NCBI RefSeq assembly: GCF_001457595.1 | Contig: NZ_LN831039.1 | Location: 4,860,001 to 4,892,000, forward strand | DNA: 32,000 nt | Origin: Mycolicibacterium smegmatis | Lineage (GTDB): Bacteria > Actinomycetota > Actinomycetes > Mycobacteriales > Mycobacteriaceae | Direction: 5' to 3' | Part shown: piece by piece, positions 3,155 through 32,000 of the stretch | Layout of the letters: each line of letters begins with the position of its first letter | Numbering within the stretch: position 1 is the first letter of the stretch | Translations under genes and position numbers: made by a program | Notes under the pieces: model-generated | The model's input: the letters and a program-made list of their open reading frames with translations, nothing else | Databases searched by the model: none | What the model was told of the DNA's origin: nothing

Positions 3155-3547
3155 CTAGGGCTCTTCGATGATCGCGACCGCGGCGGCGGTCTGATCCTCG
3201 TGCGTGAGCGACACGTGGATGGTCACGTCCTCCAGGTGTTTGGCGATCTCACCGGACAACCGCACCTTCGGACGGCCCCACATGTCGGTCACCACCTCGA
3301 TGTCGCGGTGGATCCCTTCCGGCAGGGCGGGCCGCTTGGAGAACCGAGAGCTCGACCAGGCCTTGATCACGGCTTCCTTGGCGGCCCACCGGGCCGCCAG
3401 GTGCCGGGCCGCCGACGAACTCTTGTCCGCGGCGTCCCGGCGCTCACCTGGCGTGAACGTCTCGGCGAACACGGTGCCCGGCCGGTCGACCTGCTCGGCG
3501 AAATCCGGGATGGACACCAGATCGATACCGACTCCGACTATCGCCAT
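3155..3547 (-). CDS. acpS: Holo-[acyl-carrier-protein] synthase (4'-phosphopantetheinyl transferase)
   Basis: 130-aa ORF beginning MAIVGVGIDLVSIPDF and containing AARWAAKEAVIKAW, typical of AcpS. It lies 57 nt downstream of fas, consistent with the known mycobacterial fas-acpS operon. Confidence 0.92.
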   Translation of the reverse strand: MAIVGVGIDLVSIPDFAEQVDRPGTVFAETFTPGERRDAADKSSSAARHLAARWAAKEAVIKAWSSSRFSKRPALPEGIHRDIEVVTDMWGRPKVRLSGEIAKHLEDVTIHVSLTHEDQTAAAVAIIEEP

Positions 3548-3604
3548 AGAAGCGAACCTAGTCGACGGTGTCCTCGCCGAGTCACTCCACTCCCTTCGAC
3601 ACGA

Positions 3605-16516: not shown

Positions 16517-17334
16517 CAGACCGGGCTCGGCTGGCGTTCCTGCTGACGCCGCCGCTGGCCTGGCTGGTCGTCGCCTATCTGGGATCGCTTGCGGTACTTC
16601 TCGTTTCGGCCTTCTGGCAGACCAACGAGTTCACCGGCGCGGTGGTGCGCGCCTTCACGCTGCACAACATCGAGCGCGTGCTCACCGACGAGGTGTTCCG
16701 CGTGGCCACGCTGCGCACGCTCGGGGTGGCGCTGACCGTCACGGTCATCTGCGCGGCACTCGCCGTGCCCATCGCGCTGTACATGGCCAAGATCGCCTCG
16801 CCGCGTGCCCGGCTGATCCTGGTGGTCGCGGTGACCACGCCGCTGTGGGCCAGTTACCTGGTCAAGGCCTACGCGTGGCGCATGCTGCTCTCCCCGGAGG
16901 GACCGTTGTCGTGGGCGACGGGGTTCACGCCCGGCTACGGCATCGTCGCCACCGTGGCCACCCTGACCTATCTGTGGTTGCCGTACATGGTGATCCCGGT
17001 CTACGCGGCGTTCGAGCGGATCCCCGACGCGCTGGTCGACGCCAGTTCGGACCTCGGCGCGTCCGATTTCGCGACCATGCGGATGGTGCTGGCCCCGTTG
17101 GTCTTCCCGGGGATCGCGGCGGGCTCGATCTTCACGTTCTCACTGTCGCTCGGCGACTACATCGCCGTGACGATCGTCGGAGGGAAGACGCAGATGCTGG
17201 GCAACATCATCTACGGCCAGCTCGTCACCGCCAACAACCAGCCGCTTGCGGCCGCGCTGTCGATCATCCCGCTCGCCGCGATCGTCGCCTATCTGCTGGC
17301 GATGCGGCGCACGGGTGCACTGGAGAACGTGTGA
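16495..17334 (+). CDS. ABC transporter permease (PotB-like)
   Basis: This is the C-terminal two-thirds of track ORF 15757..17334. Only the part after the binding-protein stop is real. The start is probably GTG 16495 (or 16483), overlapping the upstream stop. It has six TM segments and the EAA loop ERIPDALVDASSDLGASDFATMR. Confidence 0.85.
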   Translation: MAAGQGLTDRARLAFLLTPPLAWLVVAYLGSLAVLLVSAFWQTNEFTGAVVRAFTLHNIERVLTDEVFRVATLRTLGVALTVTVICAALAVPIALYMAKIASPRARLILVVAVTTPLWASYLVKAYAWRMLLSPEGPLSWATGFTPGYGIVATVATLTYLWLPYMVIPVYAAFERIPDALVDASSDLGASDFATMRMVLAPLVFPGIAAGSIFTFSLSLGDYIAVTIVGGKTQMLGNIIYGQLVTANNQPLAAALSIIPLAAIVAYLLAMRRTGALENV

Positions 17335-18134
17335 TGTTCTCGCGCAACGGGATCAGGGCGTTACGGATCTGGACCGCCGTGGTTCTGGTGTTCCTGTACA
17401 TCCCCCTGCTGCTGGTCCTGATCAACGCGTTCAACGCATCCCGCACGTTCGCGTTCCCGCCGACCGGTTTCACGCTGGCCTGGTGGGCCGACGCGGCCCG
17501 CAGCCCGGGCATGTGGCACGCGCTGGCCAACTCCGTGGTGGTCGGTCTCGCGGCCACCGCGATCGCCCTGGTGCTGGGCACCATGATCGCGTTCGCCGTG
17601 CAGCGGCACCGGTTCTTCGGGCGCACCACGGTGAGTTTCCTCGTGGTGCTGCCGATCACGCTGCCGGGCATCGTCACCGGCATCGCGCTCAACGCGACGT
17701 TCACCTCGGCGCTCGGGCTGATGCTCGGGATGGCCACGGTGATCATCGGCCACGCGACGTTCTGCATCGTGATCGTCTTCAACAACACCCAGGCGCGGCT
17801 GCGTCAGATGGGTTCGAGCCTGCAGGACGCGTCGGCCGATCTCGGCGCGTCGTCGTGGCAGACGTTCCGGTTCGTCACGTTCCCGATGATGCGCGGCGCG
17901 TTGCTCGCCGGCGCGATCCTGGCCTTCGCGCTGTCGTTCGACGAGATCGTGGTGACGACGTTCACCGCGGGACCCACGGTGCAGACACTGCCGATCTGGA
18001 TCTTCTCGAACCTCTTCCGGCCCAATCAGGCGCCGGTGATCAACGTCGTGGCGGCGGCACTGACCGTGTTGGCGATCATCCCGGTATGGCTCGCGGGGCG
18101 TTTCGGGGGTGACCCCGCCGGAGCGCGGGTCTAG
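17334..18134 (+). CDS. ABC transporter permease (PotC-like)
   Basis: This is the C-terminal part of track ORF 16845..18134. ATG at 17334 shares its A with the upstream TGA (GTGATG), suggesting translational coupling. EAA loop: LRQMGSSLQDASADLGASSWQTFRF. Confidence 0.88.
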   Translation: MFSRNGIRALRIWTAVVLVFLYIPLLLVLINAFNASRTFAFPPTGFTLAWWADAARSPGMWHALANSVVVGLAATAIALVLGTMIAFAVQRHRFFGRTTVSFLVVLPITLPGIVTGIALNATFTSALGLMLGMATVIIGHATFCIVIVFNNTQARLRQMGSSLQDASADLGASSWQTFRFVTFPMMRGALLAGAILAFALSFDEIVVTTFTAGPTVQTLPIWIFSNLFRPNQAPVINVVAAALTVLAIIPVWLAGRFGGDPAGARV

Positions 18135-18154: not shown

Positions 18155-18817
18155 TCAGGACGCGCGAAGGTGCAGCGCGCGCCGGAAGGCCCGGTGGAAC
18201 GAATGGTTGAACGCCCGCGCCACGACCGTCGGCGTGATGTCCACGGCTTGCCCGCTCTCCGGATCGGAGGTGGATACCGCAGCAGCCTGTTCGGCCAGGT
18301 CGTCGACCGCATCCGCGGTCAAGCGCGCGACGCGCGCAGCGGTCCCGATCAGCGCCGGCTGATCGTCGCTGGCGGCAACCGCGGCACTGAGCGCGGGGTC
18401 GGTCAGCACGAAGACGCCGTCGGCCAACTCGGCGAGGCCTGCCTCGACCAGGGTGCGTGCGTCGGACTCCGACACGTCGGCGGTGATGGGAGAGCGGTGG
18501 GCGGTCAACTCGGCCCGCTCGATTCCCAGCGCCTCGGCGAGATCCTGCCCATGGCGGACGCTGCTGAAGAACTCGGCGATGTGTGCCGAACTGAAACCCT
18601 TGTTCAGCAACGAAGCGATCAGCCTGAGCTGGGCCACGTGTGCATCGTCGTAGTACGCCGAGCGACCCACCCGGCGAGGCGGGTCGAGGAGCCCGCGCTC
18701 GCGGTACGCGCGGATGTTTCGCGCGTTGACACCTGAGAGCTGGGCGAGTTCGTCCAATCGATACTCAGCCAACCCGACGTCCCCCGCGTCGCCCTGAACG
18801 GACACCCATGCCGCCAC
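18155..18817 (-). CDS. MerR family transcriptional regulator
   Basis: 220 aa. N-terminal MerR helix-turn-helix YRLDELAQLSGVNARNIRAYRERGLLDPPRRVGRSAYYDDAHVAQLRLI. GTG at 18817 follows GGAGG. The exact start is uncertain (in-frame GTG 18805 and a TTG further downstream). Confidence 0.85.
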   Translation of the reverse strand: MAAWVSVQGDAGDVGLAEYRLDELAQLSGVNARNIRAYRERGLLDPPRRVGRSAYYDDAHVAQLRLIASLLNKGFSSAHIAEFFSSVRHGQDLAEALGIERAELTAHRSPITADVSESDARTLVEAGLAELADGVFVLTDPALSAAVAASDDQPALIGTAARVARLTADAVDDLAEQAAAVSTSDPESGQAVDITPTVVARAFNHSFHRAFRRALHLRAS

Positions 18818-18994
18818 CCTACCTCCGGCCGAACGTAGCGAGCAAATTTTTCAAGCGTGGCGCACAAACGACAGAACAAAGAACTTAGTCGCTCTTATCT
18901 GCAGCGATGTCGAGAAATCAGCCGCAGAAACTCCGTGACTATGCAATCTCAGCCAACTCTCAGGCTCGCGTTGCGCGACGGCGGGCCGGCGCAC

Positions 18995-19010
18995 GGTGAG
19001 TGAACTCACC
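18995..19010. promoter_or_regulatory. Inverted repeat GGTGAGT-GA-ACTCACC in the MerR/MFS divergent region (candidate MerR operator)
   Basis: The two 7-bp arms are perfect reverse complements. The repeat lies about 85 bp upstream of the probable MFS start. Confidence 0.4.
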
Positions 19011-19092
19011 TCGGCAAAGATGGAATCCCCCGGCAGCGCTGCGCGACCATGGAGCCGGACATCAGAACAACGAGGGCTCGAAGAAAGGCAGC

Positions 19093-20364
19093 GTGGTGCG
19101 TCCCTGGATCGTGTGGACCACCGGGCTCCTCGCCTACATCATCGCCGTCCTCGACCGCACCACCCTCGGCGTTTCGGGCCTGCAGGCCGCCGACCGGTTC
19201 TCCGCCACTCCCACCGTCCTGTCCACGTTCGTCGTGCTCCAGGTCGTCGTCTACGCCGGCGCGCAGGTCCCCGCCGGTGTGCTGCTGGACCGGTTCGGCT
19301 CCCGTGTGCTCATCGTGTGCGGCGCAGCGCTCATGGCCGGCGGCCAACTGGTGCTGGCGTTCAGCGAGTCGCTACCGGCCGCGATCGGCGCCCGCGCGAT
19401 CGTCGGCCTCGGCGACGCGGTCACCTTCATCTCGGTGTTGCGTCTGGTGCCGCACTGGTTCAAACCCTCGCAGGTTCCGTTGCTGACCCAGCTGACGGGC
19501 ATCTGCGGCCAACTCGGCCAGGTCCTGTCGGCGGTTCCGTTCCTGGCCCTGCTCACCGCGGCCGGCTGGACACCGGCATACCTGTCGGTCGGCGCGTTCG
19601 GGCTGCTCGTGATGGCGCTGGTACTCGCCGTCGTCAAGAACACGCCGCACGGCCGCGTCGTGGCCACCGAGACCACCTCGGTGCGCGACATCCCCGGCAG
19701 CGTCAAGACCGTCTGGCTGCGCCCGGGCAACCGGCTCGGGTTCTTCACCCACATGGGCACGCAGTTCTCCGTCACGGTGTTCGCGCTGATGTGGGGCGTC
19801 CCCTATCTCACGGTGGCGCAGGGTCTCTCGACCGCGGCGGCCGGCGCCCTGCTCACCGTCTCGGTGGTGACGGCGATCTCGGCCGGTGTCGCCATCGGCA
19901 TCTTCACCGGGCGGCACCCGCACCGCCGATCACGTCTGGTGCTCTGGATCATCGCGAGCAACGCGTCGATCTGGACCATCGTGCTGGCGTTGCCCGGTCC
20001 CGCGCCGACGTGGCTGCTGGTGGTCCTCATCGTGATCATCTCGGTGGGTGGTCCGGGGTCGATGGTCGGCTTCGACTTCGCCCGGACGTTCAATCCGAGT
20101 GCGACGCTCGGCACCGCGCAGGGCATGGTCAACATGGGCGGATTCCTGGCGTCCCTGATCGTCATGCAGGCGATGGGCGTCGTGCTGTCACATGCCGGTA
20201 GCTACTCGTTCGAGTCGTTCCGCCTGGCCTGGACGGTGCAGTACGCCATCTGGATCCTGGCGACCATCGGCATCCTGATCACCCGCCACAAGACCCGCCG
20301 GTTGATGGCCGCCGAGCAGGAACGCATGCTGCTCGAAGGGTTCGAGGCTCACCCGCCACGCTGA
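19093..20364 (+). CDS. MFS transporter
   Basis: ORF track 19000..20364. The first 31 codons have low third-position GC (about 63 percent) and overlap the inverted repeat. GTG 19093 (or 19096) follows GAAAGG and begins directly with TM1 (RPWIVWTTGLLAYIIAVLDRTTLGV). About 12 TM segments. Confidence 0.85.
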   Translation: MVRPWIVWTTGLLAYIIAVLDRTTLGVSGLQAADRFSATPTVLSTFVVLQVVVYAGAQVPAGVLLDRFGSRVLIVCGAALMAGGQLVLAFSESLPAAIGARAIVGLGDAVTFISVLRLVPHWFKPSQVPLLTQLTGICGQLGQVLSAVPFLALLTAAGWTPAYLSVGAFGLLVMALVLAVVKNTPHGRVVATETTSVRDIPGSVKTVWLRPGNRLGFFTHMGTQFSVTVFALMWGVPYLTVAQGLSTAAAGALLTVSVVTAISAGVAIGIFTGRHPHRRSRLVLWIIASNASIWTIVLALPGPAPTWLLVVLIVIISVGGPGSMVGFDFARTFNPSATLGTAQGMVNMGGFLASLIVMQAMGVVLSHAGSYSFESFRLAWTVQYAIWILATIGILITRHKTRRLMAAEQERMLLEGFEAHPPR

Positions 20365-21755: not shown

Positions 21756-22301
21756 GTGCATCGACAGTTTTCGCTGAACCTTCTGGGTGAGTTCGTCGTT
21801 TACCGGGATATGAAGCAGCTCGCGCTACCGCCGTCGTGCCGGCGGCTGGTCGCGCTGGCCGCGCTGAAGCAGCGGCCGCTGCACCGTAACTGGGTGTGCG
21901 AGACACTGTGGCCCGGAAGCCCGCCGAACAGGGCTGTCGCGTCGTTACGCTCGGCACTGTGGCGGTTGCGGCCGATGGGGGCGGATGCGCTGCTCGAGGT
22001 GGCGCCCCAGGAGATCGCGCTCGCTGCGAACGTATGGGTCGACTGGCACGAGATCATCCGGCTCACCGGCGTGCGCGCAGCCCGCGGAGGCGTTGCCGAT
22101 CCTGCACTCAAGGCCCTGCTCCACAACGGCGACCTGCTCGAGGGCTGGCCCGACACGTGGTGCGCCAGCGAACGTGAGCAGCTCCGCAACCTGCGACGGG
22201 ACGTGCTCGCCGGCGCGACCGACCAGGACCGCAGGCAGCTTCCGCAGCACGGCTTCAGGAGCCATCTGCTGCACCGGGTGACCGATCCGAGTTGGCCGTG
22301 A
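21756..22301 (+). CDS. Short SARP/AfsR-like regulator (winged-helix DNA-binding region plus truncated BTAD-like segment)
   Basis: 181 aa with a GTG start. The N-terminus FSLNLLGEFVV...LALPPSCRRLVALAALKQRPLHRNWVCETLWP...SLRSALWRLR resembles the OmpR-type wHTH of SARPs. DLLEGWPDTWCASEREQLRNLRRDVL resembles the start of a BTAD domain, but the protein ends about 100 aa short of a full BTAD. Confidence 0.6.
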   Translation: MHRQFSLNLLGEFVVYRDMKQLALPPSCRRLVALAALKQRPLHRNWVCETLWPGSPPNRAVASLRSALWRLRPMGADALLEVAPQEIALAANVWVDWHEIIRLTGVRAARGGVADPALKALLHNGDLLEGWPDTWCASEREQLRNLRRDVLAGATDQDRRQLPQHGFRSHLLHRVTDPSWP

Positions 22302-22435: not shown

Positions 22436-23038
22436 CTACACCGGGTCGAAGGTGGAGATCAGCCAGTTGCCGTCGATCTTGGTGAGGCCGACCTTGACGC
22501 TGCTGGTCGCGAACGACCCGTCGGGGATCTCCTGACTGGTGGTGGTCTGGTTGATGAACAGCAGCACCACCGCGGACTCGGGCTTGATCTCCGACACCGC
22601 ACCGTTGACGACGGTCGCCTTGGTCTTCACCTTCTTCTGCTGCGCAGCGGGCGCGACGACCTTGGTGGTGAAGTCGGTGTAGTACGAGAGGAAATCACCC
22701 GTCAGATGCGTCTTGGCGGTCGCGAAATCCTGGTCGAGGCTTTCCGGTGCGTAGGACAGCAGCGCGACCGTGCCGTCGGTGGCCGCCTTGAGCGCGACCT
22801 CGGCCGCGGCCGGATCGGTCTCCTTGTCCACCCGGTATTGCGTCAGGTACACGAACGTCGCCAGTGCGGCCGACGCGACCAGAGCGATTCCGAGCATGAT
22901 CGGCACGGTCTTGGCCCTGATCGCCTTGAGCACCCCTCGGCTTGGTGCGTGTGCGGGCGCGGGTTCGGTGGCGGTCACGGCCTGGTCGACGGTCTCGGGT
23001 GCCTCGACGGCGTCGGAGGTCTGGTCTTGCGCGCTCAC
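22436..23038 (-). CDS. Mce-associated membrane protein (Mam family)
   Basis: 200 aa with one N-terminal TM segment (VPIMLGIALVASAALATFVYL). The following domain has the typical Mam pattern ...ATDGTVALLSYAPESLDQDFATAKTHLTGDFLSYY...AVVLLFINQTTT.... GTG 23038 overlaps the upstream stop (GTGA). Confidence 0.82.
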   Translation of the reverse strand: MSAQDQTSDAVEAPETVDQAVTATEPAPAHAPSRGVLKAIRAKTVPIMLGIALVASAALATFVYLTQYRVDKETDPAAAEVALKAATDGTVALLSYAPESLDQDFATAKTHLTGDFLSYYTDFTTKVVAPAAQQKKVKTKATVVNGAVSEIKPESAVVLLFINQTTTSQEIPDGSFATSSVKVGLTKIDGNWLISTFDPV

Positions 23039-23946
23039 GGTACGAACTCGACTTTCGCCAACTTGATCTGGTCGCCGTCCTGCTTGACGGTCACGCTCAG
23101 CCGCCAGTTGCGTGGATCTTGATCGGCCCCGGCGGAATTCGAGATCCGCGAGGTAGCCGCGACCAGCACGACCGCGGAGTCATCGGTCATGGAGTCCACC
23201 GCGGTGGCGTTCACCTGGGCCTCGGTGGTGACCTTGGCCTGCTCGGCCACCTTGGCGAAGTCCTCGGCGGTCGCCTCGAAGTCGGCGCGGAAGTCGCCGG
23301 TCGACATGTCGATGATCCGCTGCACGTCCTCCTTGGCGTGGGTGTGATCGAGCGACATCAACGTGACGACGCCTTGGCGGGCCGCCGCGGCGAACTCGGC
23401 GGCACGGCGCTGATCGTCCTGCATCTGCTTGTGGTGGTACATCATGAGGCCGCTCACGGTCAGCAGACCGAGGATGATCACCACCGTCACTCCCGCGGCG
23501 ATCCACTTCCACACCGGCGCGTTGGTGCGGGTCGTCAGCTTGGCCTCGGGCAACTCTTGCGCCTCTTGCGCCTCCGGCTTTCCGGCGCTGTCCTTCTCGG
23601 CTGCTTCGGTGTCCTCGGCGGCTTCGGTGTCTTCGGTGTCTTCGGCGTTCTCGGCGTCTTCCGGCTCGCCGGTTTCGGACTCGTCCACGGACTCGTTCTC
23701 GGCGTCGGCTTCGGAGCTGCGCTTGGCGGCCTCCTCGGCCTGCCGCCGCAACCGCAGGGCCTCCGCACGTGCACGCGCGGCCGCGGCGATCGCCTCGGCT
23801 TCCGCGGCTTCGGCCTCGGCCTGCTCGGCGAGCAGAAGCGCGTCGTCGGCCGAGAGTTCCCCGGCCGGGGAATCGCTGCGGTCGGCGTCCTGATCGTCAC
23901 CATGGGATCCGTTGATCACGGGCAACGTAGGCTTGCGGGACGGCAT
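23035..23946 (-). CDS. Mce-associated membrane protein (Mam family) with long acidic low-complexity N-terminal extension
   Basis: ORF track 23035..23979 starts at a TTG. ATG 23946 is preferred (GGACAGGAGG ends 6 nt upstream). It has about 140 aa of Glu/Asp/Ala-rich sequence, then a TM segment (WIAAGVTVVIILGLLTVSGLMMY), then the Mam domain (VVTLMSLDHTHAKEDVQRIIDMSTGDFRADF...AVVLVAATS). Confidence 0.82.
   Translation of the reverse strand: MPSRKPTLPVINGSHGDDQDADRSDSPAGELSADDALLLAEQAEAEAAEAEAIAAAARARAEALRLRRQAEEAAKRSSEADAENESVDESETGEPEDAENAEDTEDTEAAEDTEAAEKDSAGKPEAQEAQELPEAKLTTRTNAPVWKWIAAGVTVVIILGLLTVSGLMMYHHKQMQDDQRRAAEFAAAARQGVVTLMSLDHTHAKEDVQRIIDMSTGDFRADFEATAEDFAKVAEQAKVTTEAQVNATAVDSMTDDSAVVLVAATSRISNSAGADQDPRNWRLSVTVKQDGDQIKLAKVEFVP
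23554..23571. repeat. Perfect 9-bp tandem duplication CTCTTGCGC x2 (encodes AQE-AQE)
   Basis: Seen directly at 23554-23562 and 23563-23571, in frame within the acidic region of the Mam gene. Confidence 0.7.
23604..23657. repeat. Six imperfect in-frame 9-bp tandem units (consensus CTTCGGTGT)
   Basis: Units: CTTCGGTGT / CCTCGGCGG / CTTCGGTGT / CTTCGGTGT / CTTCGGCGT / TCTCGGCGT. They encode the repetitive ...ENAEDTEDTEAAEDTEAAE... segment. Confidence 0.65.
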
Positions 23947-23980: not shown

Positions 23981-23995
23981 GAGAATCACGTTATC
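23981..23995. promoter_or_regulatory. Operator-like site GAGAAT-CAC-GTTATC upstream of the Mam operon (site 1 of 4)
   Basis: GAGAATCACGTTATCAGTTT matches site 2 (GAGAATCATATTCTCAGTTT) at 17 of 20 positions. It overlaps the minus-strand TANNNT candidate TAACGT (23993..23988), about 40 nt upstream of the ATG at 23946. Confidence 0.45.
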
Positions 23996-24039
23996 AGTTT
24001 TTGATAGCGACCCGACCCTGCATCGGCAGCGGGGGCTGG

Positions 24040-24060
24040 AAAATACCGCTTTTGCTGCGG
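24040..24060 (-). terminator. Weak intrinsic-terminator candidate after the first acyl-CoA ligase gene
   Basis: The minus strand reads CCGC-agcaaaa-GCGG-TATTTT. The stem is short (4-6 bp) and is followed by a T-tract, about 30 nt after the stop at 24089. Confidence 0.25.
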
Positions 24061-24088
24061 AAACGTTATTTACGTGCTGTGCGTGGGC

Positions 24089-25600
24089 TCAGCGTTTGCT
24101 GAGTGCTTCACGCGCTTTCAGGTGGTCCTTCATCACCTTGCCCGTGGCATTGAGGGGTAGCTCTTCGAGAAACTCCACATACCGGGGCACCTTATATCCC
24201 GCCATGCGCTCACGGCTCCAGGCAATCAGATCCTCGGCCGTGACGCACTGCCGGGTCCCATCCAGTGGCTCCCTGAGCACCACGAACGCCTTGCCCACCT
24301 GGCCCATGCGGTCGTCGTCGACGCCGATCACCGCAACCTGTGCGACGTCGGGGTGTTCCAGCAGGAATCCCTCGATCTCGGCCGGGTAGGCGTTGAAGCC
24401 GCCCACGATGAACATGTCCTTCTTGCGCCCGATGATGCGCAGACGGCCGGATTCGGTGAACTCGCCGAGGTCACCGGTGTGCAGCCAGCCGTCGGCGTCG
24501 ATGGCCTCCGCGGTGGCCGCCGGGTCGTCGAGGTAACCCTGCATGACGCTGTAGCCGCGGACCAGCACCTCGCCGTCGTCGGCGAGGTTCACCTCGACCC
24601 CGTCGCACGCCGTGCCCACGGTGGTCGCGATGTCGGTGAAGGAGTCGCCCGGGCGCGAGAGCGTCGCGGTGCCCGCCTCGGTCAGACCGTAGCCGGTGGC
24701 CACGGTCTCGAACGGCAGCTCCTCGTGGATGCGCCGGATGAGTTCGACGGGAATGTCGGCCGCACCGGTCACCCCCGCGCGCAGCGTCGCCAGCTTGGCC
24801 TTGTCCGGCACCCCGAGCAGCGAGTGGTACAGCGTCGGCGGCCCCGGCAACATCGTGACGCGTTCCGTCGCAATGAGTTCCACGATGGCGTCGACGTCGA
24901 ACACTGCCACGGGCAGCACGGTGGCGCCCCGGATGAGGCTCGCGATACAGCCGGCCTTGTAACCGAACGTGTGGAAGAAGGGGTTCACTATCAGGTAGCG
25001 GTCGCCCTCGCGCAGATCGGCCAGGTCGCACCATTCCGCATACAACCGCAGGGTTTGGAGGTGATTCATCATGACGCCCTTGGGACGCCCGGTGGTGCCC
25101 GAGGTGTAGACGATGTCGGCGATGTCGGTGCCGCGCAGCCCGCCCACCACGGCCGGCTCGCCAGAGGCCAGGAAGTCGGATTTGATCTCGATCGCGGGCA
25201 CCCCGGCAGGCACCTCGAAATCCTGCCCCAGGAAACCCTGCTGGCGCAGAACGACTTTCGCGCCGCTGCGGCGGATGACGTCGGCGGCCTCCTCGGCCTT
25301 GAAGCGCGTGTTGACCGGGACCACCACGCCGCCCGCGGTGAGCGCGCCGAATGCCGCGATCATCCATTCGGCGGAATTGGGTGCCCAGATGGCCACCCGG
25401 TCACCTCGCCCGATCCCGTGTGCGAGAAAGGCGCCCGCGGCGCGGCGCACCCGGTCGGCGAGTTCGACGAACGTGAGGCGCAGCGGACCGGCGGCCCCAG
25501 CTGGATTGTCGCCATGGTCGACGACAGCCTCGGCGTCGCCGAACCGGTCCGCTGCGCTCAGGACCATCTCGGGGATGGTCTGCCACGATGGGTGGGTCAC
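24089..25600 (-). CDS. Acyl-CoA synthetase / AMP-dependent ligase (FadD-like)
   Basis: 503 aa. AMP-binding motif YTSGTTGRPKGV and later GWLHTGDLG...GRKKD. GTG 25600 overlaps the upstream stop (GTGA). Confidence 0.9.
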   Translation of the reverse strand: MTHPSWQTIPEMVLSAADRFGDAEAVVDHGDNPAGAAGPLRLTFVELADRVRRAAGAFLAHGIGRGDRVAIWAPNSAEWMIAAFGALTAGGVVVPVNTRFKAEEAADVIRRSGAKVVLRQQGFLGQDFEVPAGVPAIEIKSDFLASGEPAVVGGLRGTDIADIVYTSGTTGRPKGVMMNHLQTLRLYAEWCDLADLREGDRYLIVNPFFHTFGYKAGCIASLIRGATVLPVAVFDVDAIVELIATERVTMLPGPPTLYHSLLGVPDKAKLATLRAGVTGAADIPVELIRRIHEELPFETVATGYGLTEAGTATLSRPGDSFTDIATTVGTACDGVEVNLADDGEVLVRGYSVMQGYLDDPAATAEAIDADGWLHTGDLGEFTESGRLRIIGRKKDMFIVGGFNAYPAEIEGFLLEHPDVAQVAVIGVDDDRMGQVGKAFVVLREPLDGTRQCVTAEDLIAWSRERMAGYKVPRYVEFLEELPLNATGKVMKDHLKAREALSKR

Positions 25601-26787
25601 GTGGTGACGAGACGTCCCAGGTTGCCGCCCATGATCTTTGCCTGGTCCTCGACCGACAGGTGCTCGAGTGCGGTCACGTAGTGCGTCGGCTCGGCCAGGC
25701 CCTCGGGGTGCGGCCAGTCGGAACCGTAGAGCACCTGATCCACACCGATGAGGTTGATCAGGTCGTCGATGCCCTCCTCGTAGAACGGGCTGACATAGAT
25801 GCGGTTCTTGATCTCCTCGATCGGGTTACCCAGGAACGCCTCCGGAGCCTTCTTGTACACCTCGGCCATGGAGTCCAGAAGCGGGAACATCCATTTCGAG
25901 CCGGCCTCGACGATGCCGACCTTGAGCTTGGGATGCCGGAACAGCGCACCGTGGATCACCCACGAGGCCACGGCATCCTGGATCGGGCGCCACTCGTTGA
26001 GGATCGACATCGCGTTGGTCTGGAACGGCAGCATCTCCTGCGCGGCACCGTCCCACTCGGAGGTGTAGCGCGAGTAGCCGCTGTCCGACGAGTGCATGCC
26101 GACGAACACGTCGTGGTGCACGACCCGCTCCCAGAAGGGATCGAACTCGGGAAGCGCGAACGAGCGCGGACCGCGGAAACCGGGCACCGGCGCGGGCCGG
26201 ATGAGGATGGCGCGCGCGCCGCGGCTGACGGCCCACTCGAGTTCCTCGATGGCCTTCTCGACGATGGGCAGCGTGATGACGGGCGTGGTGAAGATCCGGT
26301 TCTTGTAGTTGAAGCCCCACACCTCGTCGAGCCACAGGTTCAGCGAGTGGATGATGACGTGGATGGCGACCGGATCGTCGCGCAGCCGCTCCTCGATGAG
26401 GCTCGCCAGCGTCGGGAACATCAGCGAGCGGTCGACGCCCAGCTGGTCCATGAGCTCAAGACGCGGTTCCGGCTCGAAGAAGGCCGGGATCGAACGCATC
26501 GGCTCGCCGAACAGCTCACGCTTGCTCTTGCCGTCGGGGTTGCCGAACTTGAAGTACTCCTCCCATGCGCCCGGCTTGGCGACCACCGAGAACGTCGGGT
26601 TCGGGATGTAGTTGCTGATCTGGCCCTTGATGGCGATCTTCGTGCGGCCGTTGACCTCGACGTACTGGACGATGTCCTTGTAGTCCTTCGGGAGGTACTT
26701 GGTCATCGCCTCCGGCGGCTCATACAGGTGGTTGTCCGCGTCGAACAGCGGAAACGGTATGTCGACTCGATGCGACAGTTGCCCCAT
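25597..26787 (-). CDS. Amidohydrolase_2 family protein (metal-dependent hydrolase/decarboxylase-like)
   Basis: 396 aa. N-terminal FDADNHLYEP and C-terminal LYGSDWPHPEG resemble the PF04909-type TIM-barrel family. ATG 26787 follows AAAGGAG. Confidence 0.75.
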   Translation of the reverse strand: MGQLSHRVDIPFPLFDADNHLYEPPEAMTKYLPKDYKDIVQYVEVNGRTKIAIKGQISNYIPNPTFSVVAKPGAWEEYFKFGNPDGKSKRELFGEPMRSIPAFFEPEPRLELMDQLGVDRSLMFPTLASLIEERLRDDPVAIHVIIHSLNLWLDEVWGFNYKNRIFTTPVITLPIVEKAIEELEWAVSRGARAILIRPAPVPGFRGPRSFALPEFDPFWERVVHHDVFVGMHSSDSGYSRYTSEWDGAAQEMLPFQTNAMSILNEWRPIQDAVASWVIHGALFRHPKLKVGIVEAGSKWMFPLLDSMAEVYKKAPEAFLGNPIEEIKNRIYVSPFYEEGIDDLINLIGVDQVLYGSDWPHPEGLAEPTHYVTALEHLSVEDQAKIMGGNLGRLVTT

Positions 26788-26809
26788 GGAACACTCCTTT
26801 TCCTATCGC

Positions 26810-26824
26810 GAGAATCATATTCTC
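26810..26824. promoter_or_regulatory. Perfect 15-bp palindrome GAGAAT-CAT-ATTCTC (operator-like site 2 of 4)
   Basis: It sits in the 35-nt gap between the second ligase stop (26823) and the amidohydrolase ATG (26787). The minus-strand TATGAT (26819..26814) lies at its centre. Confidence 0.5.
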
Positions 26825-28436
26825 AGTTTGCGGATGTCGCAATGTCCATCACTGCCGCCGGGTTCCGAACAGCCTGGCGAACGCGGTATTTCTGCACCTT
26901 GCCGCTCGCGGTGCGCGGGAAGTCCTGACCGTCCGGCACGTGGTGCAGTTCCTCGGGCCACTTCTGGCGCGCGACGCCGACGCGTTCGAAGTGCGCCCGC
27001 ACGTCGTCGAGCGTGGGCAGCGGTGCCCCGGAGCGCGTGCGCAGCACCGCGGCGACACGCTCGCCCAGCCGCGCGTCGGGGGCGGCCACCACGATGGCCT
27101 CGATCACCTCGGGGATGCCGAGCAGCACCTCCTCGACCTCGAGCGCGCTGATGTTCTCGCCGCCACGGATGATGAGGTCGGCCGTGCGGTCGGTGATGGT
27201 GAGGTATCCGTCATCGTCGAGATAGCCGATGTCGCCCGTGCGGTACCAGCCGTCGTCGTCGAATGCCTTGGCGGTCAACGCATCGTCGGTGTACCCCAGG
27301 CACAGGTCCGGACCGCGGCTGAAGATCTCGCCGTCGGGGCCGAGCCGGATCTCCACCCCGGGGCGAGGATTGCCGTCGGTGTAGAGCCGCTTGCCCTCCG
27401 GCGCCGACGGCGATGATCCCGTGATCGACGGGTGCTCGGTGCTGCCGTAGGACCGGAACACGAAGATGCCGAGGTCCGCCAGACGGCGGGTGACCGCCGC
27501 GGGCACCGTGGACCCGCCGAGTCCGACGGTCCTGATGCGGGCCAGATGCCTGTCGGCGAAGTCGGGGTGATCCAGCAGGCTCGTGACGAAATACGGTGGG
27601 CCACCGCCGATCGACAGACCGTCACTCTCCATGAGCCGCAAAACTTTCGCGGGGTCCCAGACGTCGCACAGGTCGACGGGCGCCCCTTCGAGCACCGGGA
27701 TCAGAAACGCCCCCACCATGCCGATGAAGTGCCCGACCGGGGTCGCGGTGAGCTGACGGCCACGGTTGGGCGGGTAGTTCGCCAGCAGCTGACGGGTCTC
27801 GCAGCTCAGCGTCTGATGACTGTGGATGACGCCCTTGGGATCTCGTGTGGTACCCGAGGTGAACGCGATCAGCGCGGGCGCGGCCGGATCGGTGTCGAGC
27901 GTCCCCGACATCGGCCGCTCGGCGAGCAGATCGGTGAACGACGACTCGCCGACCAGGCCCACGATGGGGACCTGGGCGCACAGGTCGGGCTGAAAGCTCA
28001 TGCGCCCGAAGCGCTCTGTCGTGAGGAACACCTTGGGCTTGGCGGTGGACAGGATGTGCGCGAGTTCCTTGCGCCCGTAGAAGTGCACGATCGGGACGGT
28101 CACCGCACCGAGGAAGGACGTGGCCCAGAACGCCGCGGCGGCCTCCATCCAGTTCGGCAGCTGGAACGCGATCACGTCACCGGGCCCCACCCCACGCGCA
28201 CGCAGACCCGCGGCAAGCCGGCGCGCGAGCGTCTCGACCTCGCCGAAGGTGCCCGTGTAGGGCCGCACCTCCGAGTGGACGCAGAACACGACGTCCGGGC
28301 CGGCCGCGAGGCCTTCGGCCAGCATCTGACCCAGCGTCTCGGGCGTCCACCACCCTTCCTCGACGTACCGTTTGGTCAGCTCAGCGGGGATGTCGCGCAC
28401 ACCGGTGATGCTATTCTCAGTCCACGAGAATACCAA
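26823..28436 (-). CDS. Acyl-CoA synthetase / AMP-dependent ligase (cyclohexanecarboxylate-CoA-ligase-like)
   Basis: The track ORF is 537 aa from TTG 28436. Motif FTSGTTRDPKGV and later GWYRTGDIG...DRTADLI. The true start may be GTG 28400 (12 codons shorter), because the first 12 codons coincide with operator-like site 3 and a -10 box. Confidence 0.88.
   Translation of the reverse strand: MVFSWTENSITGVRDIPAELTKRYVEEGWWTPETLGQMLAEGLAAGPDVVFCVHSEVRPYTGTFGEVETLARRLAAGLRARGVGPGDVIAFQLPNWMEAAAAFWATSFLGAVTVPIVHFYGRKELAHILSTAKPKVFLTTERFGRMSFQPDLCAQVPIVGLVGESSFTDLLAERPMSGTLDTDPAAPALIAFTSGTTRDPKGVIHSHQTLSCETRQLLANYPPNRGRQLTATPVGHFIGMVGAFLIPVLEGAPVDLCDVWDPAKVLRLMESDGLSIGGGPPYFVTSLLDHPDFADRHLARIRTVGLGGSTVPAAVTRRLADLGIFVFRSYGSTEHPSITGSSPSAPEGKRLYTDGNPRPGVEIRLGPDGEIFSRGPDLCLGYTDDALTAKAFDDDGWYRTGDIGYLDDDGYLTITDRTADLIIRGGENISALEVEEVLLGIPEVIEAIVVAAPDARLGERVAAVLRTRSGAPLPTLDDVRAHFERVGVARQKWPEELHHVPDGQDFPRTASGKVQKYRVRQAVRNPAAVMDIATSAN
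28408..28413 (-). promoter_or_regulatory. Candidate -10 hexamer TAGCAT, 7 nt upstream of GTG 28400 (possible leaderless ligase transcript)
   Basis: The minus strand reads TAGCAT-caccggt-GTG. Confidence 0.35.
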
Positions 28437-28440
28437 TACC
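28413..28440. promoter_or_regulatory. Operator-like site 3 of 4: ATTCTC-AGTCCAC-GAGAAT-ACC-AATACC
   Basis: ATTCTC and GAGAAT are reverse complements separated by 7 nt. The 28-mer matches site 4 at 20 of 28 positions. It lies between the divergent ligase and enoyl-CoA hydratase genes. Confidence 0.5.
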
Positions 28441-28444
28441 GGAA

Positions 28445-29173
28445 GTGGAGAACGATTTGGTCGACCTCGAACTCGACGGCGAACTTGCGGTCATCACCAT
28501 CGACCGGCCGCACGCCCGCAATGCCATCTCGCTCGACACCATGGACGAGCTCGACAAGGCGCTCGACGGGGCGGCCGGTTCGCGCGCACTGGCCATCACG
28601 GGCGCGGGCGACCGCGCGTTCGTGTCCGGGGGCGACCTCAAAGAACTTGCCGCACTTCGCACCGAACGCGAGGCCGGGGCCATGGCATGGCGCATGCGCT
28701 CGATCTGCGACCGCATCGCCGGGTTTCCCGGCCCTGTGATCGCCGCGCTCAACGGACACGCCCTCGGTGGCGGCGCCGAAGTGGCCGTATCGGCCGACAT
28801 CCGGATCGCGGCCGATGACGTCAAGATCGGATTCAACCAGGTCGCCCTTGAGATCATGCCCGCGTGGGGCGGCGCCGAGCGTCTGGTGACACTCGTCGGC
28901 CGCAGCCGGGCCCTGTTGCTCGCGGGCACCGGACGCGTGCTCGACGCCGCCGAGGCCGAGCGCGTCGGACTCGTCGATCAGGTCCTGCCGCGCGCCGAAT
29001 TCGCCGACGGGTGGCGGGCTCTGGCACACACGCTCGCCGGGCGCCCGGCCGGCGAGATCAAACGCGTGATGGGTGGCGTCCCCGCCACCGAGGCCGTGGC
29101 GGCGTTCGCGCGCCTGTGGGTCGCCGAAGAGCACTGGGCGGCCGCCGACAAGGTGATGAACAAGAAGAAGTGA
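28445..29173 (+). CDS. Enoyl-CoA hydratase/isomerase (crotonase family)
   Basis: 242 aa with a GTG start. LAVITIDRPHARNAIS, GGDLKEL and NGHALGGGAEVAVSADIRIA are crotonase-fold signatures. Confidence 0.9.
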   Translation: MENDLVDLELDGELAVITIDRPHARNAISLDTMDELDKALDGAAGSRALAITGAGDRAFVSGGDLKELAALRTEREAGAMAWRMRSICDRIAGFPGPVIAALNGHALGGGAEVAVSADIRIAADDVKIGFNQVALEIMPAWGGAERLVTLVGRSRALLLAGTGRVLDAAEAERVGLVDQVLPRAEFADGWRALAHTLAGRPAGEIKRVMGGVPATEAVAAFARLWVAEEHWAAADKVMNKKK

Positions 29174-29193
29174 ACCGGTGGGATCTCCGGCGA

Positions 29194-29718
29194 TCACGCG
29201 CCGCCGAGTTCGCGCACCGGGTCCGAACCGTCCCACGCCCTCACGGCCTGCCGCACGAAGGTGGCCATACCGGCTGACGCGTCGGTGAGTTCCATGATCT
29301 CGATGACCGTCGCCCCCGCGGGTGGCTCGTAGTACGCGAAGCGCACGCCCTCGGCTTCCCCTCCCGACCACACCTCGGGCCAGCCCGCGTCTTCGAGGTC
29401 GGCGACGGCCGCGTCGAAGTCCCTTGCCCAGTAAGCGAGCTGATGGAAGCCACCGCCGGTGGCGGCCAGGAATTCGGTGAACACGCTGTGGGTGTCGCCG
29501 TGCTGCTGGATGAGTTCGATCTGCAGGTCGCCGCTGTTGGACAGCGCCAGCGACAGCGTCACCTCACACGGCTCACCGCGGAACCGGACCCGCTGCGTCA
29601 TCCCGCGGATGACGAACCACGGACCGACGCCCATCTGCAGCCACCGTGAGATGGCGTCGTCGAGGTCGGCCACCACGTAGCCGATCTGGCAGATCGAACC
29701 GGGCAGCACCGGATTCAT
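29194..29718 (-). CDS. VOC (glyoxalase/dioxygenase) family protein, methylmalonyl-CoA-epimerase-like
   Basis: 174 aa. QIGYVVADLDDAISRW...IELIQQHGDTHSVFTEFLAATGGGFHQLAY resembles the paired beta-alpha-beta-beta-beta VOC modules of acyl-CoA epimerases. ATG 29718 follows GAGAGGA. Confidence 0.75.
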   Translation of the reverse strand: MNPVLPGSICQIGYVVADLDDAISRWLQMGVGPWFVIRGMTQRVRFRGEPCEVTLSLALSNSGDLQIELIQQHGDTHSVFTEFLAATGGGFHQLAYWARDFDAAVADLEDAGWPEVWSGGEAEGVRFAYYEPPAGATVIEIMELTDASAGMATFVRQAVRAWDGSDPVRELGGA

Positions 29719-29778
29719 CGCATCCTCTCTGAAATCTGCGGGTGAAAGAGCCTGCTCCCCAGCCTAGTGAGGTACTCG

Positions 29779-29806
29779 GTTCTCACTGGACGAGAATCAC
29801 ATTTCC
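29779..29806. promoter_or_regulatory. Operator-like site 4 of 4: GTTCTC-ACTGGAC-GAGAAT-CAC-ATTTCC
   Basis: Same architecture as site 3. It lies in the 103-bp divergent gap between the VOC gene and the DUF35 gene. Confidence 0.5.
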
Positions 29807-29809
29807 GGT

Positions 29810-29815
29810 TATCGT
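29810..29815 (+). promoter_or_regulatory. Candidate -10 hexamer TATCGT, 6 nt upstream of GTG 29822 (possible leaderless DUF35-thiolase operon)
   Basis: The sequence reads TATCGT-cagcac-GTG with no Shine-Dalgarno sequence. Confidence 0.4.
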
Positions 29816-29821
29816 CAGCAC

Positions 29822-30253
29822 GTGTCCACTCAGAAAGCCCTGGCGCCCGAGATCTCCACCTGGCCCGATGAGAATCCGCAGTTGATCGGCAGCAGATGCG
29901 ACACCTGCGGGTCCTACGTGTTCCCCGTGCAGGACCACTGCCCCAGGTGCAGCAGCGCCGACACCTCAGAGGTGCTGCTCCCCCGCCGCGGCACCGTCGT
30001 CGCGTGGACCACGCAGGGCTTCCCGCCCGGCGCCCCGTACGCGGGCCCCACGGGTAAGGACTTCGTGCCGTTCGGTGTCGGCCTGGTCGAACTCGCCGAC
30101 GAGACCGGCCCCGTCATCCGCGTCGAGGGCCGGTTGACCGAAAACGACCCGGACAAGCTGGAATTCGGCCAGCAGGTCGAGCTCACGATGATTCCGTTCA
30201 CCACCGACGACGAGGGCAACGAGGTCGTCACGTTCGCGTTCCAGCCGGTCTGA
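29822..30253 (+). CDS. DUF35 OB-fold / zinc-ribbon acyl-CoA-associated protein
   Basis: 143 aa. Four-Cys ribbon CDTCGSYVFPVQDHCPRC followed by an OB-fold-like segment. It is the usual partner of SCP-x-type thiolases. Confidence 0.85.
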   Translation: MSTQKALAPEISTWPDENPQLIGSRCDTCGSYVFPVQDHCPRCSSADTSEVLLPRRGTVVAWTTQGFPPGAPYAGPTGKDFVPFGVGLVELADETGPVIRVEGRLTENDPDKLEFGQQVELTMIPFTTDDEGNEVVTFAFQPV

Positions 30254-30265
30254 GGAGGTTCAGCA

Positions 30266-31411
30266 ATGACCAATGACGTCGCCATCATCGGCGTGGGACT
30301 GCATCCGTTCGGCCGCTTCGACAAGCCCGCGGTGCAGATGGGCGCCGAGGCCATCCGCCTGGCCCTGAAGGACGCCGGGGTCGAGTGGAAGGACATCCAG
30401 TTCGGGTTCGGCGGCAGTTACGAGGTGTCCAACCCGGACTCGGTGACCCGCCTGGTGGGCCTGACCGGCATCACGTTCACCAACGTGTTCAACGCGTGCG
30501 CCACCTCGGCGAGCGCGATCCAGCAGACCGCAGACACGATCCGGCTGGGCAAGTACGACATCGGCGTGGCCGTCGGGCTGGACAAGCATCCGCGCGGCGC
30601 GTTCACCGACGATCCGGCCAAGCTCGCACTGCCGCAGTGGTACGCGCAGAACGGGCAGTTCGTCACCACCAAGTTCTTCGGAATGAAGGCCAACAAGTAT
30701 CTCCACGACCACAACATCAGCCAGGACACGCTGGCGCGCGTGGCCAACAAGAACTTCCGCAACGGCGCACTGAACCCGAATGCGTTCCGGCGCAAGGAGA
30801 TCTCGGTCGAGGAAATCCTCGCCTCACCCACGCTGAACCACCCGCTGACGCAATACATGTTCTGCGCACCCGACGAGGGCGCGGCCGCGGTGATCATGTG
30901 CCGGGCCGACATCGCGCACAAGTTCACCGACAAGCCGGTGTACGTGCGCGCCAGCGAGATCCGCACGCGGACCTTCGGCGCCTACGAGGTGCACGCGACC
31001 TCGGCGCCGCCCGAGTCCGACGCCGCGCCCACGGTGTACGCGGCCAGGGCGGCCTACGAGGCCGCGGGCATCGGCCCCGAGGACGTCGACATCGCGCAGT
31101 TGCAGGACACCGACGCCGGTGCCGAGGTGATCCACATGGCCGAGACCGGGCTGTGCGCCGACGGCGATCAGGAGAAGCTGATCGCCGAGGGCGCCACCGA
31201 GATCGATGGTTCGATCCCCGTCAACACCGACGGCGGCCTGATCGCCAACGGTGAGCCGATCGGGGCCTCGGGTCTGCGCCAGATGCATGAACTCGTACGC
31301 CAGTTGCGCGGCGAGGCCGGCGACCGCCAGGTGCCCGGCAACCCCCGTGTCGGGCTCGCGCAGGTCTACGGCGCACCCGGCACCGCATCCGCCACGATCC
31401 TTTCCCTCTGA
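30266..31411 (+). CDS. Thiolase-like protein, SCP-x / lipid-transfer-protein (Ltp) type
   Basis: 381 aa. ATG follows GAGGAGG. Nucleophile region FNACATSASAIQ and C-terminal NTDGGLIANGEPIGASGLRQ. It starts 12 nt after the DUF35 stop. Confidence 0.9.
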   Translation: MTNDVAIIGVGLHPFGRFDKPAVQMGAEAIRLALKDAGVEWKDIQFGFGGSYEVSNPDSVTRLVGLTGITFTNVFNACATSASAIQQTADTIRLGKYDIGVAVGLDKHPRGAFTDDPAKLALPQWYAQNGQFVTTKFFGMKANKYLHDHNISQDTLARVANKNFRNGALNPNAFRRKEISVEEILASPTLNHPLTQYMFCAPDEGAAAVIMCRADIAHKFTDKPVYVRASEIRTRTFGAYEVHATSAPPESDAAPTVYAARAAYEAAGIGPEDVDIAQLQDTDAGAEVIHMAETGLCADGDQEKLIAEGATEIDGSIPVNTDGGLIANGEPIGASGLRQMHELVRQLRGEAGDRQVPGNPRVGLAQVYGAPGTASATILSL

Positions 31412-31493: not shown

Positions 31494-32000
31494 TCAGCCC
31501 GCTGCTTCGATCGGCAGCGGTTCGCCTTCGATGCGTCGCAGCCAGCCTTCGCAGAACTCGAGCACCTCGGCGTGCCCGGCCGACATCCCGAGCGCCTGTT
31601 CCATCACCATCACGCGCGACACGCTGGTCGCCAGGAAGGTCCACACGATCGGGGGCACGTCGGCCGCGTTGACGCCGTAGCGGTCCAGCGCGGCTGTCAT
31701 CGCCTTGGTCTGCTCGTCACGGAATCGTTCGGCGTAGCGGCCGATCTCCGTGCGCAGGGCCTTGCGGTGATTGGCCACACCCATGATCTCCATCGTCAAC
31801 CGCGTCGCACTGGGGTCGATGCCGAAGCGCCACAACGCCCACAGCGGCTGCGGCGAGTCGAGCGCACGGGCCTGCGCCGCCAGGCCCTCCTCGGCGCGCC
31901 TGCGGAACACCGCGAGGAACAGATCGTCCATGGTGCGGAAGTAGTAGTGCACCAGTTGCGGCTTGAGGCCGGCCCGCTCCGCGACCCGGCGGGACGTGAC
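31494..32000 (-). CDS. TetR family transcriptional regulator (N-terminus beyond the right edge)
   Basis: Track ORF 31494..31952 begins at an internal GTG. The frame stays open to the window edge and reads ...VTSRRVAERAGLKPQLVHYYFRTMDDLFLAVF, the TetR helix-turn-helix. Confidence 0.85.
   Translation of the reverse strand, partial: VTSRRVAERAGLKPQLVHYYFRTMDDLFLAVFRRRAEEGLAAQARALDSPQPLWALWRFGIDPSATRLTMEIMGVANHRKALRTEIGRYAERFRDEQTKAMTAALDRYGVNAADVPPIVWTFLATSVSRVMVMEQALGMSAGHAEVLEFCEGWLRRIEGEPLPIEAAG

Follow-up and report, generated by a model that had tools for sequence, protein, structure and literature searches.

Several repressors of lipid and coenzyme A (CoA) metabolism have been described in mycobacteria together with their operators, and they offer a frame of comparison for a family of short inverted repeats, built from the hexamer GAGAAT and its complement ATTCTC, in a 32,000-nucleotide stretch of the Mycolicibacterium smegmatis genome (contig NZ_LN831039.1, positions 4,860,001 to 4,892,000 of the forward strand; hereafter the window). 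Four such sites lie beside genes for a pair of putative Mce-associated membrane (Mam) proteins, two acyl-CoA ligases, an amidohydrolase-type protein, an enoyl-CoA hydratase, and a DUF35-thiolase pair. Among the described repressors, KstR2 recognizes the operator AnCAAGnnCTTGnT. KstR, a TetR-family repressor of cholesterol and lipid catabolism and of mce4 in M. smegmatis and Mycobacterium tuberculosis, uses the operator TnnAACnnGTTnnA (PMC1995591), and the motif instances and derepressed genes published for it include no MSMEG_47xx gene (PMC1995591). Mce3R is a double-TetR repressor of mce3 that acts at two asymmetric, non-palindromic 25-bp sites (PMC11667970), and BkaR (MSMEG_4718) has the operator GTTA-N-T-N4-A-N-TAAC and is autoregulated from its own divergent promoter (PMC3920632). 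Indeed, TetR regulators are usually autoregulatory via an operator in a divergent promoter (PMC3920632; PMC1995591). Most mycobacterial Mce importers are still without a known substrate or regulator. A sequence-only reading of the window did not recognize the GAGAAT motif as that of KstR, KstR2, or any other known mycobacterial operator, and comparison upholds this judgement, the motif also differing from those of BkaR and Mce3R.

In the window, the four sites reported by that reading are all present at the positions given for them. Site 1 (23981-23995), which on the minus (mamA) strand is GATAAC-GTG-ATTCTC, is the weakest M. smegmatis copy; site 2 (26810-26824), 5' of the amidohydrolase gene, is GAGAAT-N3-ATTCTC; site 3, between ligase 2 and the hydratase, has the core ATTCTC-N7-GAGAAT at 28413-28431, which weak half-sites on both flanks widen to 28404-28440; and site 4 (29779-29806) is a composite operator, GTTCTC-N7-GAGAAT-N3-ATTTCC. 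The identities counted earlier (17 of 20 between sites 2 and 1, 20 of 28 between sites 4 and 3) are correct, but site 2, described as a perfect 15-bp palindrome, is actually an inverted repeat of 6+6 bp whose 3-bp centre is not palindromic. Similarly, the placement of the sites in non-coding gaps stands, except that 2 nt of site 2 fall within the ligase-2 stop codon.

The GAGAAT/ATTCTC hexamer is not in itself enriched in the window (7 copies versus 6.7 expected); all seven copies fall inside 5.9 kb (P ~2.4e-4 for random placement), and inverted pairs are found beyond expectation, with two instances each of TTCTC-N(3-11)-GAGAA (0.04 expected) and GAGAA-N(1-9)-TTCTC (0.08 expected). The sole other such palindrome in the window, GAGAAC-N7-GTTCTC at 17323-17341, falls within the coding sequence of an ABC permease and probably arose by chance. 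When 84 related loci (1.67 Mb in total) were scanned for exact palindromes, using Markov simulations as the null, GAGAAT-N3-ATTCTC was encountered 84 times versus 0 in the simulations, and ATTCTC-N7-GAGAAT 98 times versus 0.4.

For a closer comparison, orthologous loci were collected by an amidohydrolase search with one genome per species, resulting in 80 loci from Mycolicibacterium, Mycolicibacter, and related metagenome bins, most of which retain the core order ech / lig2-amid-lig1-mamA-mamB. Alignment of the orthologous intergenic regions, proposed earlier as a check, was carried out, and all four sites proved to be conserved. Site 1 follows GAnAAY-GnC-ATTCTC with 1-3 mismatches over 54 loci, its ATTCTC half being invariant. 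Site 2 keeps a perfect repeat in 78 of the 81 loci, and cATTGC-N13-TGAGAATAnGATTCTC is present in all 81, with the element at a constant distance from both the ATG and a conserved AAGGAG ribosome-binding site. Site 3 is perfect in all 75 loci, each of which carries TATTGGCATTCTC-N7-GAGAATAgCATC, while the N7 spacer positions hold an information content near zero. Site 4 can be written as RTTCTC-tCTaGAC-GAGAAY-nnC-ATTTCC-nn-TTAtcGT, with 0-2 mismatches over 55 loci. Invariant half-sites beside freely varying spacers indicate a symmetric DNA-binding protein rather than drift or shared ancestry, and the four sites are, as predicted from sequence, one strongly conserved family of protein-binding operators. 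The complete promoter/operator architecture of site 3 is also kept in a metagenome contig of 72% GC (L094, 4116-4185). A wider metagenome scan with ATTCTC-N7-GAGAAT-NNCA returned 120 matches, nearly all of them chance occurrences in unrelated low-GC DNA; only three belonged to related clusters, and no regulator was revealed in these three.

The half-sites are combined in two arrangements, GAGAAT-N3-ATTCTC (15 bp) and ATTCTC-N7-GAGAAT (19 bp), and all sites are subsets of a single array with a 22-bp period, ATTCTC-N7-GAGAAT-N3-ATTCTC-N7-GAGAAT-N3-ATTCTC. Written in register, site 3 becomes GGTATT-GGC-ATTCTC-N7-GAGAAT-AGC-ATCACC; site 4 becomes GTTCTC-N7-GAGAAT-CAC-ATTTCC; the promoter of a DUF732 gene in the related locus L082 becomes GTTCTC-N7-GAGAAT-AAC-ATTCTC; and the mce-operon promoter of relatives becomes GTTCTC-N7-GAATGT-ATG-ATTCGC-N7-GAGAAT-GAA-ATTTCC, that is, five half-sites in register over 56 bp. 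An outer half-site that also has to serve as a -35 or -10 hexamer is degenerate, and perfect sequence is kept in the inner half-sites. Dimers could occupy the N3-centred 15-bp units, two helical turns apart, and would then bind cooperatively; alternatively, a dimer might be centred on N7.

The sites had also been described as lying on -10 candidates of the adjacent genes; every site does overlap a predicted -10 or -35 hexamer, but one of the proposed hexamers, TAACGT, is not general across species. This hexamer, read from the sequence as the predicted -10 of the mamA-mamB promoter (23988-23993, minus strand), is limited to M. smegmatis and the fortuitum group, with GATAAT or GAAAAT elsewhere, and the left half-site of mamA coincides with the -10-like GATAAT or TAACGT. 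The amidohydrolase promoter obtained by a promoter scan, TTGCGA-N17-TATGAT (26814-26842, minus strand; -35 at 26837-26842, -10 at 26814-26819), has its cATTGC block and TAnGAT conserved, and its -10 forms the centre of the site 2 palindrome. The ligase-2 promoter (28408-28436, minus strand), assigned from sequence reading and conservation, consists of the -35 TTGGTA at 28431-28436, which is TTGGCA in most species, and the -10 TAGCAT at 28408-28413, with ATTCTC-N7-GAGAA exactly as its 17-nt spacer. A GTG, at 28400 in the window, lies 7 nt past this -10 in M. smegmatis and the fortuitum group; because this GTG is the annotated MSMEG_4774 start, ligase 2 is predicted to be leaderless. Site 3 is, moreover, back-to-back with the hydratase promoter. 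On the plus strand, the DUF35 promoter is read as TGGACG-N17-TATCGT (29787-29824; -35 at 29787-29792, -10 at 29810-29815, GTG at 29822); across species it appears as TnGACG-N17-TATCGT, with TTAtcGT and the distance to the GTG (6 nt past the -10) conserved, and the DUF35 gene is likewise a predicted leaderless gene. Its -35 is inside the N7 spacer of site 4, and the GAGAAT-N3-ATTTCC unit is inside the promoter spacer. Repression by promoter occlusion may be inferred, because occupied sites would each block RNA polymerase. In published expression tables, the values for MSMEG_4774 and MSMEG_4780 are 0 in androstenedione medium and ~12-15 in cholesterol medium, which is weak evidence consistent with tight repression.

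The best explanation for these observations, and one that is judged to be quite likely, is that the hexamers represent operator half-sites recognized by a single sequence-specific repressor, which switches an entire supercluster. The repressor would most likely be a dimeric helix-turn-helix protein that excludes RNA polymerase when bound and comes off when it binds an intermediate of the pathway, most probably an acyl-CoA; its release would switch on a supercluster of 60-75 kb comprising an orphan Mce importer, Mam and secreted accessory proteins, and a CoA-dependent pathway. Several points weigh against this explanation. Two spacing classes are unusual for a rigid dimer; in the 15-bp sites, operator and -10 hexamer are inseparable by sequence alone; site 1 of M. 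smegmatis is degenerate, with 2 mismatches; and the mce-operon site is seen in M. goodii and other relatives, the M. smegmatis operon lying beyond the sequence covered and being interrupted by an insertion sequence. Furthermore, a search for a regulator gene whose own promoter carries a GAGAAT site found none, either across the ~75 kb surrounding the cluster or within the 1.7 Mb of related loci; it covered the 21-kb loci of 80 species with Pfam applied to unlabelled open reading frames (ORFs), the extension through the mce operon, and a further 10 kb past the second cytochrome P450. Finally, the entries listed in a published 5'-end map (Martini et al. 2019) place an end 267 nt upstream of mamA (window 24213), not at site 1, and none of them coincides with a predicted start. 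The minus-strand ends of that map are at genome positions 4873615 (window 24213, the ligase-1 3' end) and 4873040 (window 23638, inside mamA and 600 nt upstream of mamB), the mc2155 genome (CP000480) coordinate being the window coordinate + 4849402; some Mam transcripts may come from internal promoters or processing sites and not depend on site 1.

As to the identity of the repressor, the leading guess is a KstR-like paralogue encoded elsewhere, because the half-site resembles KstR instances such as GAGAAC-AC-GTTCTA. In a bolder form, somewhat short of an even chance, such a paralogue outside the cluster would be the master repressor of a third large catabolic supercluster of the steroid/terpenoid type in environmental mycobacteria, with its own Mce importer and next to the sets governed by KstR and KstR2, and the TetR-P450 pair embedded in the cluster would be a separate first-step sensor module.

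The TetR gene at 31494-32000 (MSMEG_4779) had been singled out in the sequence-only reading as the obvious but unproven candidate regulator. It is the sole transcription factor embedded in the supercluster (~75 kb), since the other regulator-like genes nearby, a MerR gene with an MFS pump and a SARP-like ORF, are at the far edge with no motif. It also moves with the cluster, being found beside the thiolase in M. smegmatis, beside the hydratase in Mycolicibacter, and directly 5' of the amidohydrolase in L082, and in the related locus L071 it adjoins a GAGAAT site. Nevertheless, the intergenic region between this TetR and the P450 (MSMEG_4780) from which it always diverges is without a GAGAAT site in 65 of 65 genomes and holds instead, once per locus in 65 loci, an invariant 22-bp palindrome, ATGCTGAGCAC|CTGCTTAGCAT (also ATGCTGAGCACCTGCTTAGCAT), which is located at window coordinates 32201-32224, just past the window (L003, 11936-11959). 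This palindrome occurs only where the MSMEG_4779-type TetR is present and persists without the P450, for example in L071; because TetRs usually autoregulate from a divergent promoter, as in the precedents of BkaR and KstR, it is probably the TetR's own operator, through which the protein would control the P450 and itself. The TetR is within 10 kb in 65 of 80 loci, the remaining loci keep GAGAAT sites, and at least seven loci retain all of these sites with no TetR copy within 10 kb. Given a different palindrome and no GAGAAT site in its own region, the TetR is a weak candidate, and the proposal that it is the repressor binding the GAGAAT sites is now considered unlikely.

Homologue searches with the MSMEG_4779 TetR returned close Mycolicibacterium relatives only and no named orthologue, and published orthologue tables list no M. 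tuberculosis counterpart (Rv0135c pairs with MSMEG_6480). Clade-specific TetRs, namely TetR2 upstream of DUF35 in seven loci and TetR3 in Mycolicibacter, were rejected as the regulator, the GAGAAT site being absent from their own promoters. PDB sequence searches with two of the TetRs gave generic helix-turn-helix matches only. The second TetR is inserted together with SnoaL-like and zinc alcohol dehydrogenase genes between DUF35 and VOC (L017, 3995-4723; L083, 4139-4804; and five others), and site 4 then stands between the stop codon of that TetR and DUF35. The MerR gene (18155-18817) and the SARP-like ORF (21756-22301) were also set aside, because no motif is near them and MerR is paired with an MFS pump. 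The divergent MerR-MFS pair (18155-20364, with MSMEG_4767 as the MFS gene) keeps its place at the cluster edge in ~36-50 loci and looks like an independent efflux module. The SARP-like ORF, which encodes 181 aa beside mamB, appears by eye to be a SARP/OmpR-type winged-helix protein without a Pfam or NCBIfam match and is kept next to LtrA in ~33 loci.

A further alternative, rather improbable and weaker than a KstR-like paralogue, is that the sites are read by a multimeric, nucleoprotein-forming regulator encoded elsewhere, such as one of the Lrp/AsnC type. Phased half-site arrays with a 22-bp period and several sites per promoter would suit such a protein, as would the failure to find a cognate regulator in cis; in addition, site 2 may resemble the Escherichia coli Lrp consensus from systematic evolution of ligands by exponential enrichment (SELEX), YAGHAWATTWTDCTR, with agreement at 12 of 15 positions. 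However, no Lrp/AsnC-type gene was seen near any locus, Lrp arrays usually have a phasing of ~30 bp, and the likeness of the half-site to KstR sites (GAGAAC-AC-GTTCTA) points to a TetR paralogue instead.

It is very unlikely that the hexamers are promoter elements, with GAGAAT serving as a bidirectional -10-like hexamer or as the signature of a dedicated sigma factor. GAGAAT does fit the nAnnnT pattern of a -10, the promoter scan scored TGGACA-N18-GAGAAT as promoter-like, GAGAA and the -10 hexamer are immediately adjacent in the amidohydrolase and ligase-2 promoters, and the N7 arrangement is found at divergent pairs (hydratase/ligase 2, VOC/DUF35, and the pair of gene families h169/h134). Yet three sites already have better -35/-10 pairs with 17-nt spacing and the right distance to leaderless starts, which leaves the GAGA/TCTC flanks unexplained; strict two-fold symmetry has no promoter rationale at the unidirectional amidohydrolase and mamA promoters; and the mce-operon array of in-register half-sites likewise goes beyond what a promoter would account for. 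The last alternative, that the palindromes act as RNA hairpins in leaders or are copies of a small mobile or repetitive element, is scarcely credible, for while each site can be drawn as a short hairpin, the fold energies are no better than those of shuffled sequences (z from -0.4 to +0.5), an Rfam covariance-model search gave no match, the positions are fixed relative to orthologous start codons in ~80 species with flanks not common between the sites, and sites 3 and 4 would not be transcribed because they are upstream of leaderless starts.

The genes in this part of the window carry locus tags MSMEG_4770-4779, assigned from published tables. On the minus strand, mamB (MSMEG_4770, 22436-23038) and mamA (MSMEG_4771, 23035-23946) encode single-pass membrane proteins that are paralogues of each other. 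Their earlier identification as Mam proteins is weakly supported: the architecture (an N-terminal transmembrane helix and a conserved C-terminal domain) and the paralogy fit, one cluster member carries the JGI name Mce-associated membrane protein, and there is a weak match to OmamC (PDB 9r33, E 0.045), whereas Pfam and NCBIfam searches of the pair gave no match. The mce operon is 11 kb from the Mam genes in M. smegmatis and adjoins them in L132 and L071. In the gap between ligase 1 and mamA (24001-24088), a conserved non-coding block, GTAAATAnCATTTCCGCAG, directly follows the ligase-1 stop codon, and in most species a GTATCG-N6-CGATAC palindrome, degenerate in M. smegmatis, is situated ~20 nt upstream of site 1.

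The minus strand further carries ligase 1, a FadD3-family acyl-CoA ligase (MSMEG_4772, 24089-25600; NCBIfam equivalog NF005801, 745.6 bits versus a cutoff of 657); the amidohydrolase, an Amidohydro_2 TIM-barrel protein (MSMEG_4773, 25597-26787) related to PtmU3, DitZ, and 4dzi; acyl-CoA ligase 2 (MSMEG_4774, 26823-28400; annotated start 4877802 = window 28400); and a VOC/glyoxalase-family protein (MSMEG_4776, 29194-29718). The Amidohydro_2 protein is 91-98% identical over ~80 species, its operon neighbours being 70-85% identical, and the di-iron monooxygenase PtmU3 and DitZ are among its relatives of known structure. On the plus strand are the enoyl-CoA hydratase (MSMEG_4775, 28457-29173; TTG start), the DUF35 protein with a ChsH2-like OB/zinc-ribbon fold (MSMEG_4777, 29822-30253), and a thiolase-like lipid-transfer protein (MSMEG_4778, 30266-31411), followed on the minus strand by the TetR gene, which is cut by the window end and listed as a neighbour. 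Ligase 2, the VOC, DUF35, and thiolase-like proteins, and the TetR were identified by family matches. Further to the left, the window contains fas, acpS, an ABC transporter, the MerR-MFS pair, and LtrA; the type I fatty-acid synthase (3089 aa) and acpS form a housekeeping context at 3155-12874, with bcp, an M20 peptidase, and a Ca/Na exchanger to their left. Searchable literature on MSMEG_4770-4784 offered nothing beyond expression tables and a remark on the split mce operon.

Although no mce operon is found within the 32-kb window, one (MSMEG_4785-4794) lies 6 kb past its end in M. smegmatis, after the divergent P450 and four small secreted proteins, whose genes are also preceded by half-site arrays. 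In at least 15 other species each, strong sites are found before h158-h139 and between h169/h134. Additional sites are upstream of the DUF732 gene (L082), of an aldehyde dehydrogenase-CoA-transferase-yrbEAB-mceA-F operon in relatives, and of an operon for a short-chain dehydrogenase/reductase (SDR), ferredoxin, and P450, while an acyl-CoA dehydrogenase (ACAD)/amidohydrolase divergon has GAGAAT-type sites that include a perfect GAGAATAACATTCTC. By extension through mceC homologues and the second P450, the layout was traced from an ACAD pair / two Amidohydro_2-Rieske-hydrolase ... P450-ferredoxin-SDR-SDR to aldehyde dehydrogenase-CoA_transf_3-(DUF35-thiolase)-yrbEAB-mceA-F / secreted proteins / P450-TetR / the window genes. 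The locus L082 has a compacted set in which the amidohydrolase, DUF732, the aldehyde dehydrogenase-yrbE-mce operon, and an ACAD are preceded by sites. Similarly, the metagenome contig L132 (1224-1246 and 6324-6346) has a compact cluster in which a GAGAAT site separates mamA/B from the neighbouring h169 and mceF. The gene set stays linked while synteny varies among genera and in the metagenome contig. Judged by the motif, this is one predicted regulon spanning a 60-75 kb supercluster in fast-growing mycobacteria.

The single control proposed in the sequence-only reading is accordingly supported for the Mam pair, both ligases, the amidohydrolase, the hydratase, and the DUF35-thiolase pair; for the VOC gene it is weak, the VOC side of site 4 being unconserved, and this gene may be regulated only by extension. 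The suggestion of a coupled uptake-and-degradation module is strengthened, and the module becomes much larger than supposed, because the sites and the gene set extend through the mce operon, which carries an array on its promoter in relatives. The enzymes, namely the FadD3-family ligase, paired ACADs, DUF35-thiolase pairs, a Rieske protein with a hydrolase, P450s, a family-III CoA-transferase/racemase-type protein, and the TIM-barrel protein related to PtmU3 and DitZ, resemble by analogy those of steroid or terpenoid degradation pathways, and the substrate may be guessed to be a branched isoprenoid or a polycyclic terpenoid.

The motif thus defines ~40-50 genes that are probably co-regulated with a single orphan Mce system: importer subunits, Mam and secreted accessory proteins, P450s, dehydrogenases, the two CoA ligases, the PtmU3/DitZ-like TIM-barrel enzyme, and DUF35-thiolase pairs of the aldolase type. 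In practical terms, it provides operator DNA with which to capture the repressor, promoter fusions for finding inducers, and a list of genes for deletion, and it warns that the neighbouring TetR is probably the wrong candidate. The choice of strain also matters for experiments, as the mc2155 mce operon is interrupted by an insertion sequence with an ISL3-family transposase (MSMEG_4788-4791; L003/L004 20565-21146 versus L002 20020-21146); in another M. smegmatis strain, the operon is intact, including mceC and mceB (PMC4881515). If the master repressor is indeed encoded outside the cluster, identifying that protein and its ligand would de-orphanise both the Mce transporter and its substrate.

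In comparison with the known systems, BkaR, encoded ~60 genes away in the M. smegmatis genome, is a TetR protein of mycobacteria that likewise has palindromic operators, these serving a CoA-metabolism operon, but its GTTA-N-T-N4-A-N-TAAC core is not matched by the sites described here. Mce3R is similar as a repressor that brings an mce operon and neighbouring genes of lipid metabolism under one control; in contrast to its sites, the present ones are two-fold symmetric hexamer pairs, and no double-TetR gene is nearby. KstR2 and the HIP/FadD3 regulon have in common with this locus a FadD3-family ligase as a target and the look of a TetR-type local catabolic regulon, whereas the KstR2 motif is unrelated and the regulon here is much larger. 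The closest functional analogy is with KstR, which has a palindromic operator overlapping the -10, an AGAA core in the half-site, and many copies over a large lipid-catabolic set with an mce operon, FadD/FadE/Ech/Ltp enzymes, P450s, and DUF35 proteins. Unlike in KstR sites, the half-site here ends in AAT rather than AAC, the spacer is 3 bp (7 bp in the inverted arrangement) instead of 2 bp, the 14-bp palindrome TnnAACnnGTTnnA is not matched, arrays with a 22-bp period are present, and no visible autoregulatory site was found for a regulator in the loci searched. By analogy, the system would appear to work like that of KstR, with a repressor acting at many promoter-overlapping palindromes across a lipid-catabolic and Mce supercluster; its unusual feature is the array of alternating spacing.

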